64,000 bases of DNA from positions 1 through 64,000 of IMG/VR virus record IMGVR_UViG_3300045911_000155, one strand, 5' to 3'. The notes under the pieces are model-generated. The model made no database searches. It was not told the origin of the DNA and saw nothing but the letters and a program-made list of their open reading frames with translations. This document shows positions 15,910 to 49,725 of the stretch, one piece after another. The translations under genes and the position numbers were made by a program. The DNA is from a virus. Position 1 is the first letter of the stretch. Every line of letters starts with the position of its first letter.

Positions 15910-16001
15910 TGGTAGTGGGACCGGGATTCGAACCCGGATCGTGCGCTAATCAGGCGCTTCCCGCTTATAAGGCGGTCGTTTTGCCGTTAAACTATCCCAC
16001 C
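15910..16001 (-). tRNA. tRNA-Ile(UAU) with long variable arm
   Basis: acceptor GGTGGGA/TCCCACT, loop CT-TAT-AA, V-arm GCGC-CTGATTA-GCGC, TTCGAAT, A-CCA. Confidence 0.85.
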
Positions 16002-16017
16002 GTGATATAATCGCGGA

Positions 16018-16491
16018 ATGGAACAGATTGGCCCCACAGGAAACTACGATCTTGGCGCGAAACTCAATGAGAATGATCGCGGCGGCTTGAATGTCGCAGT
16101 CACTATCGTCGAAGGACACATCCTCATGGTTTTCGGCACCCAACTCGATTGGCTGGCGGGTGGACCGGAACACATGCTGGCGGTCGGGATGCGGCTTGGT
16201 CAGTTGGCGTTGAAGTTGAGCAATGGTGCGATCAACTTCGACCAATTGAACCTTGCGGCGTTCGATAGTGTTGATGGGGACAATCAGTTGCCCGGCGGGA
16301 TTGAAGTGACACTCAATCGGGAGAAGGGTTTGATCGAAACCAAACTCCCGGCCAACGTCGAAGCGTTGGCGTTCACGGCGCAAGGGGCGTTCGCCTATGG
16401 ATTGCGGCTGATGATGTGTGTGAAGGTCTTGCGTCCTGATTTGGTTCCGTTCTTGCCGGATCTGCCCGAATCAGAATTGAAGAAGTGGTAG
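16018..16491 (+). CDS. hypothetical protein (leaderless)
   Basis: TATAAT 6 nt upstream of ATG; antisense to the tRNA operon. Confidence 0.65.
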   Translation: MEQIGPTGNYDLGAKLNENDRGGLNVAVTIVEGHILMVFGTQLDWLAGGPEHMLAVGMRLGQLALKLSNGAINFDQLNLAAFDSVDGDNQLPGGIEVTLNREKGLIETKLPANVEALAFTAQGAFAYGLRLMMCVKVLRPDLVPFLPDLPESELKKW

Positions 16492-16563
16492 GCGCGGGGA
16501 GACTCGAACTCCCAAACACCGAATTTTAAGGACGGTAGGTCTGCCTGTTCCCGTCACGCGCCC
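16486..16563 (-). tRNA. tRNA-Leu(UAA), short variable loop
   Basis: GGGCGCG/CGCGCCT, loop CT-TAA-AA, TTCGAGT, A-CCA; anticodon stem only 3 bp. Confidence 0.75.
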
Positions 16564-16850
16564 ACAGTTGGCAGTCCACGCATTTCCCGGCGCTCTTTCT
16601 CCGTGAAGGGGAGAGTCAGTTCCGCGTCTGCATCGATGCCGTGCAACACTTTCAGATCCTTCGCCAATTCCATCGTCCACGTTCCCTTTAGCTGACGCGC
16701 ACGCGGCTTGACCAGCACTTTCGTGACGGTCATCGGAAAATTGAGTGCTTCGCCGCCGGGGAGCGGTCGTATCAGCGGCTTGGCTTTCACCGTTGTGCCC
16801 GCGATGGCACCGGCGATCATTCCGAATAGTCCGCGACGTGTGAATTTCAT
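16554..16850 (-). CDS. Tat-like signal fused to a major-capsid-protein fragment
   Basis: MKFTRRGLF N-terminus; 20/35 ungapped identity to gp23 residues 194-228 of this window. Confidence 0.8.
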   Translation of the reverse strand: MKFTRRGLFGMIAGAIAGTTVKAKPLIRPLPGGEALNFPMTVTKVLVKPRARQLKGTWTMELAKDLKVLHGIDADAELTLPFTEKERREMRGLPTVGA

Positions 16851-16879
16851 TTGAATGCCTTTGGCTGAATGAGAGAAAT

Positions 16880-17233
16880 CTATTTGGTTTCGACCGGCAC
16901 ATCGGCCAGCAAGTCCAAGTACTTTTGCGGCACCATCGCCGGGTTGAGTACGATGGTCCGGTTCGCAAACATCAACGTGCCTTTGCGCGCCGTCAGCGTG
17001 ATCGGATGCTTCTTCGCCCATTCCGGGTCGTCATCATAGAAGCCGTCCCAATCGTCGTCCACGCCTTGCACCGTGATCCGGGCTTCGTCTTTGCGATAGG
17101 CGTTTTGTTTGATGCCGACGCGAACTACCTTGCCGATCCGAAGAGCGGCGCACCGGCCTAATGCGTGACCGTAGACGATGATCGCGCCCGGCTCAATCGG
17201 CTGTCCCATCTTGTCTTTGAGTGGTAGTTCCAT
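16880..17233 (-). CDS. hypothetical protein
   Basis: D..GQPIEPG..IVY motif; TAGAAT -10 upstream. Confidence 0.65.
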   Translation of the reverse strand: MELPLKDKMGQPIEPGAIIVYGHALGRCAALRIGKVVRVGIKQNAYRKDEARITVQGVDDDWDGFYDDDPEWAKKHPITLTARKGTLMFANRTIVLNPAMVPQKYLDLLADVPVETK

Positions 17234-17253
17234 TGATCCATTCTACGACGAAC

Positions 17254-17443
17254 TGGTGGGATAGCCGGGACTTGAACCCGGACAATGTTTTAGCATTGCG
17301 ACTTCAGGATACATTGGATCGGTTTGGCCGATCCCTACCCGCTTCCCTAGCGACCCTTACTCAGAGCCGGTTGGTGCATCTGGAACCCTACATCGCGCCC
17401 ACGCTCCGTTTTTCGTGCGCTCTGTCCGTTGAGCTACTATCCC
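17254..17443 (-). ncRNA. 190-nt tRNA-like RNA with large structured insertion
   Basis: acceptor GGGATAG/CTATCCC, D arm GCTC/GAGC, T arm CCGGG-TTCAAGT-CCCGG, A-CCA; about 135 nt lie between D and T arms. Confidence 0.8.
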
Positions 17444-17451
17444 AAATTCTT

Positions 17452-18580: not shown

Positions 18581-18669
18581 TGGCAACGGATAGCGGGATT
18601 TGAACCCGCAGTGGCTTTTTAGGCCGACTGTTTTTGGACAGTTGTGTTTACCATTTCACGATAACCGTT
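18581..18669 (-). tRNA. atypical 8/5 tRNA-like RNA, G73, long V arm, 6-nt anticodon loop
   Basis: AACGGTTA/TATCCGTT acceptor, ACTGT-CCAAAA-ACAGT, GGC-CTAAAAA-GCC, TTCAAAT, G-CCA. Confidence 0.7.
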
Positions 18670-48282: not shown

Positions 48283-48303
48283 ATGTCCCGTGGTATACTC
48301 AAG

Positions 48304-49725
48304 ATGATGTCATTTCGACAATTCCTATTTGAAAGCGCGAAGGCCGAAGAAGCCTTGAACGCGGTACGCAATGCGCTCATCGGTTCGAAGTATGAGCAAG
48401 ACGTGTACCTTGTAGGCGGGGCCGTTCGCGATATGCAAATGGGCTTGCCGGTCAAGGACTTAGACCTTGTGGTGGACAACCACGGTCTTGAGGGTGGCAT
48501 CGAATGTGCGACTTTCTTGGCGAAGGCGCTTGGCGTTTTCCGCCCGGATTCAAACCCGGTGATCTTCCCGCGATTCGGCACTGCGAAGCTGACGTTGAAG
48601 AGCGGGTTCGACGTGGAGTTCGTCGCGCCGCGCAAAGAGAAGTACGACGCCAACAGCCGGAAGCCGGTTGTGTCTGCCGGTACGCTCGAAGACGATGCGT
48701 TCCGCCGCGACTTCACGATCAATTCCCTGTTCATGCGCCTGTCGAATTCCGAACTCCGGGATCTGACCGGGCGCGGTCTGGCCGATTTGAAGCGCAAGAC
48801 CATCCAAACGACCAGCGACGCCACCTACATCTTCAGCGAAGATCCGTTGCGCATGTTGCGCGCCGTCCGGTTCGCAATCAAGTACGACTTCGAATTGCCG
48901 CTGGCACTCATCAAGGCAATCAAGGTGAATGCCCGGCGGCTTCAGACGATCAGCAAGGAACGCATTCAGGACGAACTGAACAAGATCCTTGTGCTGAAGA
49001 CGCCATCGCGCGCGATCCGCCTGTTCAAGATTACCGGGTTGCTGAAAGAGTTCATGCCGGAACTGCAAGCGCTGTCCGGCGTCACTCAGAACGCCTATCA
49101 CAAGCACGACGCTTTCGACCACACGCTTGATGTGCTGGACAATGCGCCGCCGGATCTGACTGTCCGGCTTGCCGCGCTGTTCCACGACATCGGCAAGGCC
49201 GCGACCCGCACCGACGACGGTGGAAAGGTTCGTTTCCTTGGTCACGCCAATGTCGGTGCCGAAATCGCTGTCGAAGTCATGAAGCGGTTGAAGTACTCGA
49301 ACGACGACACGGAGAAGATCCGCAAGATCGTGTTTCATCACATGGACATGAAGTTCGCTGGTGACGATCTGGCGACGCTGAAGGACAAGAGCCTTCGGAA
49401 GCTCATCTTCCGTGTTGCCGACAAACTGGACCCGCTGTTGAGCCTGATGCATGCCGACAACATCAGCCATGCGGAGCACGCCAATATGCCGAATCAGATC
49501 AACCTCATCCGGCAACGCATCAAGGATTGGGACATCGAATCCATCCTGAACACCACCAGTGTTCTGGACGGCAACGAAATCGCCGCCTTGGGCGCGAAGG
49601 GTCCGCTGATCGGCAAGATCAAAGGTCGCATTCTGGACAAGGTTCTGGAGAATCCCTCTTTCTCGAAGAAGGACGCCACTCTGATGGCACAGAGCATGAT
49701 CCGTGATGCCGCCGGAAAGAAGTAA
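48304..49725 (+). CDS. cca: CCA-adding tRNA nucleotidyltransferase with HD domain
   Basis: VGGAVRD, DLD, DAFRRDFTIN, EDPLRMLRAVRF, SKERI, LFHDIGK. Confidence 0.95.
   Translation: MMSFRQFLFESAKAEEALNAVRNALIGSKYEQDVYLVGGAVRDMQMGLPVKDLDLVVDNHGLEGGIECATFLAKALGVFRPDSNPVIFPRFGTAKLTLKSGFDVEFVAPRKEKYDANSRKPVVSAGTLEDDAFRRDFTINSLFMRLSNSELRDLTGRGLADLKRKTIQTTSDATYIFSEDPLRMLRAVRFAIKYDFELPLALIKAIKVNARRLQTISKERIQDELNKILVLKTPSRAIRLFKITGLLKEFMPELQALSGVTQNAYHKHDAFDHTLDVLDNAPPDLTVRLAALFHDIGKAATRTDDGGKVRFLGHANVGAEIAVEVMKRLKYSNDDTEKIRKIVFHHMDMKFAGDDLATLKDKSLRKLIFRVADKLDPLLSLMHADNISHAEHANMPNQINLIRQRIKDWDIESILNTTSVLDGNEIAALGAKGPLIGKIKGRILDKVLENPSFSKKDATLMAQSMIRDAAGKK

Follow-up and report, generated by a model that had tools for sequence, protein, structure and literature searches.

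A phage tRNA(UAU) gene with an extra hairpin resembling the tRNA-Ile(GAU) anticodon arm, and a neighboring tRNA-Leu(UAA) gene without its long variable arm

RESULTS

Two unusual tRNA genes in a T4-like phage

The DNA analyzed here (the window) comprises the first 64 kb of IMG/VR virus record IMGVR_UViG_3300045911_000155 (G000), which spans 80,560 bp and is rated 47% complete. Pfam recognized T4-like phage genes in it (gp23 major capsid protein, gp5, prohead protease, scaffold, DNA ligase, and CCA-adding enzyme). Every tRNA gene of the window lies on the minus strand; 12 tRNA matches exceed the Rfam gathering score, and ARAGORN with default settings reports 11. This work concerns two of the tRNA genes, a tRNA(UAU) gene with an extra hairpin and a tRNA-Leu(UAA) gene without a long variable arm (Table 1). 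A first-pass annotation of the sequence had described an Ile(UAU) gene with a paired long arm and a Leu(UAA) gene with a short variable loop and a weak anticodon stem, and both ARAGORN and Rfam confirmed that description. Its broader claim of a "swapped architecture" held in part: an Ile-type core has acquired an arm and a Leu-type core has lost one, but the two tRNA bodies have not been exchanged.

Both genes are real and lie where Table 1 places them. They were compared with a 224,490-bp relative (G001) that is 96% complete and was examined whole; 72 proteins match between the two records, with a mean identity of 84%. The tRNA(UAU) gene is identical to its counterpart at 90 of 92 positions, both differences falling at unpaired positions, and the tRNA-Leu(UAA) gene matches at every one of its 78 positions. 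The open reading frame (ORF) between the two genes and the flanking DNA are about 80% identical, with insertions and deletions. Both genes are conserved far beyond their surroundings, and the persistence of near-unchanged tRNA genes amid such flanks is a strong argument for function.

The tRNA(UAU) gene combines a class I core with an inserted hairpin

The 5′ part of the tRNA(UAU) consists of the acceptor strand GGUGGGA, U8 and A9, the D-arm GUUU-AACGGCA-AAAC, and a single G. The middle comprises the anticodon arm ACCGC-CUUAUAA-GCGGG, two A residues, the hairpin GCGC-CUGAUUA-GCGC, and the linker ACGAU, and the 3′ part comprises the T-arm CCGGG-UUCGAAU-CCCGG, the acceptor strand UCCCACU, A73, and CCA. 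The Rfam tRNA score is 60 bits (gathering score, 29), and the predicted minimum-energy fold includes the acceptor stem, the anticodon arm, the hairpin, and the T-arm. The acceptor stem has 7 bp beginning with G1·U72, the acceptor/T branch is 7/5, and the discriminator is A73 (position 15913).

Like the class II tRNAs (Leu, Ser, and Tyr), this tRNA has a paired arm between the anticodon arm and the T-arm. Unlike them, the long-armed tRNA(UAU) has 5 or 6 unpaired bases after the arm that serve as a variable loop, a class I D-arm, and a conserved, anticodon-like loop in the arm itself. The window gene has a 4-bp D-stem and a 7-nt D-loop, whereas the five tRNA-Leu of the same phage have a 3-bp stem and a loop of 9 to 11 nt; the short D-stem and long D-loop of a Leu-type class II tRNA are missing, and 5 nt separate the arm from the T-stem. 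From this anatomy, the gene is best described as a class I core with a hairpin inserted between the anticodon stem and a 5-nt variable loop.

Most of the Ile identity elements of Escherichia coli listed in PMC9976931 are present in the tRNA(UAU): A73, A35, U36, A37, A38, C29-G41, and U12-A23. Two are absent, U34 standing in place of G34 or lysidine-34 and G4-C69 in place of C4-G69. A G34 occurs in this gene only within the loop of the extra hairpin, CUGAUUA, where GAU occupies positions 15949 to 15951.

Long-armed tRNA(UAU) genes form a family in phages

IMG/VR was scanned with a pattern of CTTATAA, a gap fitting an extra arm, and GGTTCGAATCC, the sequence of the arm being left free. Among the 120 matches listed, ARAGORN called a long tRNA(tat) in at least 100 loci (70 unique). 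A hairpin with a 7-nt loop and GAU at loop positions 3 to 5 was present in 65 of the 70 unique members among these matches; in shuffled controls the count averaged 1.5 and never exceeded 5, and the next commonest triplet reached 22. The commonest hairpin loop of the family, CAGAUUA, is also that of G001, and the window gene has CUGAUUA. In a reverse scan of IMG/VR (CAGATTA plus the T-loop, with the anticodon free), 107 of the 120 listed loci held a tRNA(tat) with the motif; 3 of the remainder were other tRNAs matching by chance, and 10 were uncalled, 7 of which belong to the UAU family by eye. When both architectures were admitted, 66 long and 35 short tRNA(tat) were obtained among the 120 matches listed.

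A covariance model (R1) was built from an alignment of 24 diverse family members that excluded G000 and G001. The alignment supports all five helices (98.5% of cells paired), and its covariation score was 0.904 versus 0.243 in shuffles, none of 500 scoring as high. Within the hairpin helix, both bases vary in three of the four pairs, and the remaining pair is C-G throughout (24 of 24). The model matched the window gene at all 91 positions with 91.1 bits (E, 1.4e-22); the runner-up tRNA of the window scored 47 bits. The linker after the hairpin has 5 nt in 41 members and 6 nt in 22, and its last base varies together with position 15, the combination being A-U in 101, G-C in 15, and another in 2 of the 118 unique members with a 4-bp D-stem and A14. 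The linker behaves like an ordinary variable loop. A73 was found in 143 of 163 parsed members, the remainder being mostly ARAGORN calls that are one base off. The window gene shares with the family the CUUAUAA loop, the GAU-loop hairpin of 4 to 5 bp with its two C-G pairs, the linker, and the match to the model.

The variant seen most often in IMG/VR matches one stretch of the Synechococcus phage S-SRM01 at 100% identity and one of the Synechococcus phage S-SKS1 at 86%; both stretches are unannotated. blastn searches of 50,697 phage records with the window gene gave no match at an E value of 0.01, a second family member likewise gave none, and a third matched S-SRM01 and S-SKS1. Scanning 185,579 species genomes with the combined pattern yielded 55 loci, mostly in Pyrinomonadaceae and Blastocatellia (Acidobacteriota), where the family members sit in tRNA clusters such as Thr-Asn-Lys-Ile(GAU)-Ile(UAU)-Gln. 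The long-armed UAU family is abundant in phages, and no published description of it was found: neither the hairpin family nor an arm-less phage tRNA-Leu is described in the full-text literature searched, a body that leaves subscription journals and supplements outside its coverage.

The hairpin resembles the anticodon arm of tRNA-Ile(GAU)

The pairs of the hairpin were numbered from the loop, as in an anticodon arm. C-G is found at 31-39 in 53 of 65 members and at 29-41 in 59 of 65, the other 6 having G·U, and pairs 30-40 and 28-42 covary. The anticodon stems proper of the same tRNAs have C29-G41 in only 8 of 65 cases, and all 35 unique tRNA-Ile(GAU) genes of the DNA examined have it. The anticodon arm of E. 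coli ileV is CACCC-CUGAUAA-GGGUG; the window hairpin agrees with it at six of seven loop positions and has C31-G39 and C29-G41 in common with it. Judging from these positions, the extra arm imitates the anticodon arm of tRNA-Ile(GAU). For E. coli isoleucyl-tRNA synthetase (IleRS), the determinants given in the part of PMC9976931 used here are the anticodon, A73, and N6-threonylcarbamoyladenosine at position 37 (t6A37), with C4-G69, 12-23, and C29-G41 as minor pairs.

A separate peculiarity was seen among the tRNA-Ile(GAU) genes themselves. In 14 of 35 unique class I tRNA-Ile(GAU) genes, from tRNA clusters of Acidobacteriota (L292 to L346), the universal U at loop position 33 is replaced by C, the loops reading UCGAUAA, CCGAUAA, or ACGAUAA.

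ATA codons exchange mainly with Ile codons

The first-pass annotation had raised two readings of the tRNA(UAU) gene, decoding of AUA independently of TilS and a type II body charged with Leu that would recode AUA, and had proposed examining the residue aligned to ATA codons. ATA is rare in the window phage (19 of 18,937 codons, with 36 TTA). In protein alignments with G001, 21 columns have ATA in either phage; it is present in both in 6, and in the other 15 it is exchanged with ATT (3), ATC (3), GTA (3), ACG (2), ACC (1), TTG (1), CTA (1), or ATG (1), that is, with Ile in 6 of 15 and with Leu in 2 of 15. TTA in these alignments changed to Leu codons in 35 of 40 cases. A second test used AT-rich cyanophages carrying the family, S-SRM01 and the IMG/VR relative G002. 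Of 288 changed ATA positions, 136 had Ile, 54 Val, 29 Leu, 19 Thr, and 9 Met. ATC exchanges like ATA (Ile, 186; Val, 47; Leu, 22), and TTA does not (Leu, 296; Ile, 55). gp23 held no ATA codon in any of six phages.

Since ATA exchanges mainly with Ile codons in two phage pairs, Leu recoding is not supported, and a tRNA inserting Leu would be costly in S-SRM01, where ATA accounts for 700 of 57,973 codons. The exchanges indicate that phages with the long-armed UAU tRNA read ATA as Ile. The proposed type II body charged with Leu was not borne out by the anatomy either, given the class I-like core, the 4-bp D-stem and 7-nt D-loop, and the 15-48 covariation. TilS-independent decoding fared well: the anticodon is UAU, and no TilS was found in either record searched, the G000 fragment or the 96%-complete G001. 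No class Ia synthetase was found in any of five phage records. With neither a phage TilS nor a class Ia synthetase, the host IleRS must charge the UAU tRNA, and the tRNA-Leu(UAA) likewise depends on a host enzyme for charging.

The tRNA-Leu(UAA) gene belongs with a recurring class of arm-less phage tRNA-Leu

The tRNA-Leu(UAA) gene has A73 (position 16489), G1·U72, perfect acceptor and T-arms, and a variable loop of 4 to 5 nt. Its D-stem has only two G-C pairs. Its Rfam tRNA score is 34.6 bits, against a gathering score of 29, and ARAGORN finds it with the -ps90 setting. The long variable arm of a canonical bacterial tRNA-Leu is missing.

A scan of IMG/VR for the D-arm of this gene gave 42 loci. 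In 20 of these the D-arm lies within called tRNAs (22 calls, 17 unique), and the matches at the other 22 are due to chance and lie outside tRNAs. All 17 unique tRNAs have Leu anticodons (UAA in 6, UAG in 6, CAA in 4, and GAG in 1) and A73, and 10 have G1·U72. The window gene shares with them the Leu anticodon, A73, the 4- to 5-nt variable loop, and the D-arm GACGGGAACNGGCANACC. It departs from them in its anticodon stem: the 6-position stems of the D-arm relatives are, by eye, essentially fully paired, so the two mismatches next to the loop are special to the lineage of G000 and G001, in which they are conserved.

Relatives found by blastn are annotated as tRNA-Leu in 67 phage records. Those drawn out, EscoHU1 Leu(UAA), two Leu(UAG) of Jay2Jay, and LeeroyJenkins Leu(CAA), are 75 to 77 nt long and have short variable loops and A73. 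A short tRNA-Leu is also annotated in S-SKS1, and short Leu genes adjoin long UAU genes in some IMG/VR loci. Cultured phages that infect laboratory hosts carry both classes, a T5-like coliphage (EscoHU1) having the short tRNA-Leu and Synechococcus phages the long tRNA(UAU). On its features the window gene falls into a recurring phage class of arm-less tRNA-Leu, and its anticodon stem is weakened. The arm-gained and arm-lost forms are each a widespread phage tRNA class.

Two observations touch both classes. The G1·U72 wobble of both window genes recurs in 67 of 163 long UAU tRNAs and in 10 of 17 short tRNA-Leu. By ARAGORN, a long-armed tRNA(UAU), a tRNA(CAU), and a tRNA-Leu(UAA) stand side by side in S-SRM01, S-SKS1, and G002, which are a T4-like cyanophage, a cyanosiphovirus, and an uncultured relative; S-SRM01 and S-SKS1 have a short Leu gene in this trio, and G002 has a long one.

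Other features of the window and its relatives

The ORF between the two tRNA genes, which has 81% amino acid identity in G001, matched no Pfam or PHROGs family, and neither database assigns it a function. Directly upstream of the tRNA-Leu(UAA) gene, a 155-amino-acid ORF contains a 41-residue match to a conserved part of gp23 (Pfam, 1.2e-08; PHROGs, 9.3e-09). All tRNA genes of the window encode CCA even though the phage also encodes a CCA-adding enzyme. Promoter and terminator scans of the window gave results at chance level. No RNA dataset is listed as containing this stretch. In three presumed-RNA runs, contigs matched the tRNA genes only as short pieces whose flanks differ from those of the window; these contigs probably derive from relatives or from DNA and are uninformative on expression.

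Two further tRNA-like genes are irregular. The first, 190 nt long, has a 7-bp acceptor stem (GGGAUAG/CUAUCCC), a 4-bp D-arm, a T-arm, A73, and an encoded CCA, with about 110 nt between the D-arm and the T-arm and, just before the latter, a hairpin with the 6-nt loop CUAAAA. Only 5 differences separate it from its G001 counterpart, it was missed by ARAGORN default and Rfam, and one DNA run contains a relative that lacks 17235 to 17444. ARAGORN can read it as a His(atg) gene with a 96-nt intron, which is doubtful. The second has an 8-bp acceptor stem, G73, a long variable arm, and the 6-nt anticodon loop CCAAAA; ARAGORN reports it as "tRNA-??? (aa)," Rfam scores it at 42.6 bits, and it is identical in G001 at 88 of 89 positions. 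It may be related to the 8/4 phage tRNA-Ser treated in PMC5389517.

G001 has 40 tRNA genes by ARAGORN default and 49 with a relaxed setting, and it shares a Pro/Leu array with G000. Long paired arms also occur in G001 on tRNA-Arg(ACG) and tRNA-Arg(CCG), which have U73 and the loops GAAA and GCAA, and on tRNA-Asn(GUU), which has G73. No Ser, Tyr, Gln, or Ile(GAU) tRNA is among its 40 default genes.

Table 1. Features of the window (minus strand written as -) and of related phage genomes
Feature	Coordinates	Strand	Basis or remark
tRNA(UAU) gene, 92 nt including encoded CCA (15910-15912)	15910..16001	-	ARAGORN default, Rfam, family covariance model
Anticodon UAU	15967..15969	-	In canonical 7-nt loop CUUAUAA (15965-15971)
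Extra hairpin GCGC-CUGAUUA-GCGC	15943..15957	-	4-bp stem 15954-15957/15943-15946; 7-nt loop 15947-15953
5-nt linker ACGAU, hairpin to T-stem	15938..15942	-	U at 15938 is position 48, partner of A15
tRNA-Leu(UAA) gene lacking the long variable arm, 78 nt with its encoded CCA	16486..16563	-	ARAGORN -ps90, Rfam
Anticodon UAA	16526..16528	-	Loop CUUAAAA (16524-16530)
Weak anticodon arm	16518..16536	-	ACCGUC (16531-16536)/UUCGGU (16518-16523); 4 pairs, U·U and C·U next to loop
Leu-specific D-arm ACGGGAACAGGCAGACCU	16537..16554	-	IMG/VR D-arm scan
157-amino-acid ORF between the two tRNA genes	16018..16491	+	Opposite strand to the tRNA genes; stop overlaps CCA end of tRNA-Leu(UAA) gene
155-amino-acid ORF with gp23-like match	16557-17021	-	
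190-nt tRNA-like gene	17254-17443	-	
tRNA-like gene with 8-bp acceptor stem	18581-18669	-	
CCA-adding enzyme with HD domain (tRNA nucleotidyltransferase)	48283-49722	+	Pfam and PHROGs; 98% identical in G001
Long-armed Arg, Arg, and Asn tRNAs of G001	129865-129952, 130448-130537, 135135-135220 of G001		
UAU/CAU/Leu(UAA) trio, S-SRM01	MW015081.1 32943-33676		ARAGORN
UAU/CAU/Leu(UAA) trio, S-SKS1	HQ633071.1 (L261 2496-2877)		ARAGORN
UAU/CAU/Leu(UAA) trio, G002	220699-220994		ARAGORN

DISCUSSION

We consider it probable, at roughly 0.6, that both genes give rise to working tRNAs: a tRNA-Ile(UAU) whose hairpin aids its charging with Ile and an arm-less tRNA-Leu(UAA). The amino acids and the role of the hairpin are predictions from sequence. 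The UAU tRNA would read AUA directly, without lysidine, and the tRNA-Leu(UAA), which has kept its Leu-type D-arm and A73 while losing the long arm, would serve UUA (and UUG). A charging aid is suggested because bacterial IleRS recognizes U34 poorly; the relative kcat/Km of E. coli IleRS is 360-fold lower for UAU than for LAU (PMC3575796). The GAU-loop hairpin would supply the Ile signal that U34 lacks or would otherwise secure charging by the host IleRS. Taken on its own, the view of the hairpin as a charging handle is tentative. Equally tentative is a division of labor between two anticodon-like arms, in which the UAU arm decodes AUA and the GAU arm is read by the host IleRS, either in a second docking mode or through an alternative fold that stacks the GAU arm in the anticodon position. 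A comparable likeness occurs in the thrS mRNA operator, where a hairpin mimics the anticodon arm of the cognate tRNA and is bound by threonyl-tRNA synthetase. The thrS mimic lies in an mRNA and represses translation, whereas the phage mimic would lie inside a tRNA and promote its own charging.

Among known systems, compared here as far as the cited sections of each paper describe them, the closest in decoding is the Mycoplasma mobile tRNA-Ile2(UAU), in which a UAU anticodon of the unmodified type reads AUA without TilS in a class I tRNA with A73 (PMC3575796). It faces the same two problems as the window gene, recognition of U34 by IleRS and misreading of AUG. In M. mobile, charging is solved by an altered IleRS (Arg865), whereas the phage family has the GAU-loop hairpin and depends on the IleRS of the host. 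The allo-tRNA(UAU) genes of Mukai et al. 2017 (PMC5389517) are likewise irregular tRNAs of bacteria (again including Acidobacteria) and phages, with a long arm and mainly a UAU anticodon. They have an 8/4 or 9/3 branch and a Ser-like G73 or U73, in contrast to the 7/5 branch, A73, and class I core of the window gene; six variants derived from allo-tRNA(UAU) were inactive in the assay that the cited part of that paper reports. The "E-loop" irregular tRNAs of the same authors were considered as members of the family and rejected, since they have another anticodon and discriminator and, in the portion of the paper cited, the same arm is not evident. In nematodes, nev-tRNA-Ile(UAU) also joins a UAU anticodon to an extra paired arm in the variable region (PMC4300185). 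It is eukaryotic and is leucylated in vitro, and the window gene differs in its Ile-like core and in ATA statistics that favor Ile; no mistranslation by the nematode tRNA was detectable in the work described in that section.

Several points weigh against a charging role for the hairpin, and against the wider reading to which it belongs. U33 is universal in anticodon loops, and E. coli IleRS uses t6A37; position 2 of the hairpin loop is mostly A and position 6 mostly U or G, and the GAU loop is an imperfect anticodon loop. One family member (L023) has GAC, a Val anticodon, in place of GAU. An arm emerging next to the variable loop would be expected to extend away from the site of the IleRS anticodon-binding domain. 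Because this expected geometry is wrong for the usual docking, a mimic would need another docking mode or fold. The 35 class I phage tRNA(UAU) without a hairpin, among the 120 matches listed, mean that the hairpin is not indispensable; C29-G41 was found in 12 of 32 unique short UAU tRNAs versus 5 of 52 long ones, a weak trend in the predicted direction. Many of the counted family sequences are interrelated, so the counts overstate independent events. Finally, TilS scored above the cutoff in five of five family-carrying acidobacterial genomes; a role of the family as a TilS replacement in the bacteria that carry it was rejected on this ground, the gene being an addition there.

The best-surviving alternative is that the tRNA is still an Ile tRNA and its hairpin does something other than promote charging, which we hold to be possible although on the unlikely side. 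The hairpin could improve accuracy, so that AUA and not AUG is read; it could be a handle for modification or processing; or it could be a shield or decoy against host tRNA nucleases or toxins. The accuracy problem is real, since the M. mobile tRNA-Ile(UAU) cannot separate AUA from AUG on E. coli ribosomes according to the cited part of PMC3575796. Loop positions 2 and 6, where the hairpin differs from a real anticodon loop, the hairpin-free class I phage UAU tRNAs, and the recurrence of G1·U72 in both phage tRNA classes are also compatible with such roles, and the phage CCA-adding enzyme fits a pressure on tRNA integrity. Left unexplained are the exact GAU at anticodon positions, the C-G pairs kept at 31-39 and 29-41 while the other pairs covary, and the near confinement of the motif to UAU tRNAs. 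No nuclease specific for tRNA-Ile(GAU) was met in the literature searched.

For the tRNA-Leu(UAA) gene, a decaying or nontranslational tRNA-like element, such as a gene remnant or a differently folded regulatory RNA, has to be weighed, and we judge it improbable. Such an element could account for the two mismatches next to the anticodon loop and for a D-stem with so few G-C pairs, as well as for the low Rfam score and the failure of ARAGORN default to find the gene. The cloverleaf is predicted at -23.8 kcal/mol, 4.5 kcal/mol above the predicted minimum of -28.3 kcal/mol, and a perfect 5-bp helix, GACGG/CCGUC, can compete with it. With only two identical copies, the gene offers no covariation. 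Decay is hard to reconcile with complete identity in G001 amid diverged, indel-bearing flanks, with perfect acceptor and T-arms, A73, and an encoded CCA, and with a D-arm common to 16 other unique phage tRNA-Leu. Human mitochondrial tRNA-Leu(UUR) works without a long arm and with a fragile anticodon stem, and E. coli leucyl-tRNA synthetase (LeuRS) depends on A73 and can do without both the anticodon and the long arm, as summarized in the sections of PMC9976931 consulted. Human mitochondrial tRNA-Leu(UUR) and the short phage tRNA-Leu resemble the window gene in their Leu anticodon, A73, and short variable loop, and the mitochondrial tRNA shares its fragile anticodon stem; the two loop-adjacent mismatches are absent from the phage relatives.

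That the long-armed UAU tRNA is leucylated through A73 and its long arm and places Leu at AUA is very improbable: Ile tRNAs have A73 in common with Leu tRNAs, the anticodon plays no part in recognition by E. coli LeuRS (PMC9976931, same sections), and UAU nev-tRNAs are misacylated with Leu in vitro (PMC4300185, same section), yet the core of the UAU gene is unlike that of the phage's own five tRNA-Leu, the 5 to 6 nt after the arm are not a class II placement, ATA changes favor Ile over Leu in both phage pairs while changes at Leu codons of these alignments stay mostly within Leu, and the frequency of ATA in S-SRM01 would make recoding costly.

The preferred reading, two working tRNAs with a hairpin that aids Ile charging of one of them, draws on comparisons that are new here: that of the hairpin with the tRNA-Ile(GAU) arm at 29-41, the 15-48 covariation, the ratio of long to short genes, the codon tests, and the link to arm-less tRNA-Leu. 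The arm-less tRNA-Leu class is a natural confirmation of minimal-substrate experiments on bacterial LeuRS. Among the 120 matches listed, the apparently undescribed long architecture is about twice as frequent as the plain phage tRNA(UAU), and as long UAU genes are unannotated in two cultured cyanophages, inventories of phage tRNAs and codon usage studies undercount AUA decoders. If the hairpin is an IleRS handle, it would be a new answer to the AUA problem beside lysidine, agmatidine, and an altered IleRS, and a transplantable identity module for synthetic biology in which charging is split from decoding. If the division of labor between two arms is true, the hairpin would be a portable identity tag that makes a tRNA with a poorly recognized anticodon chargeable by any bacterial IleRS, and this would be the first case in nature of a tRNA whose identity anticodon is physically separate from its decoding anticodon.

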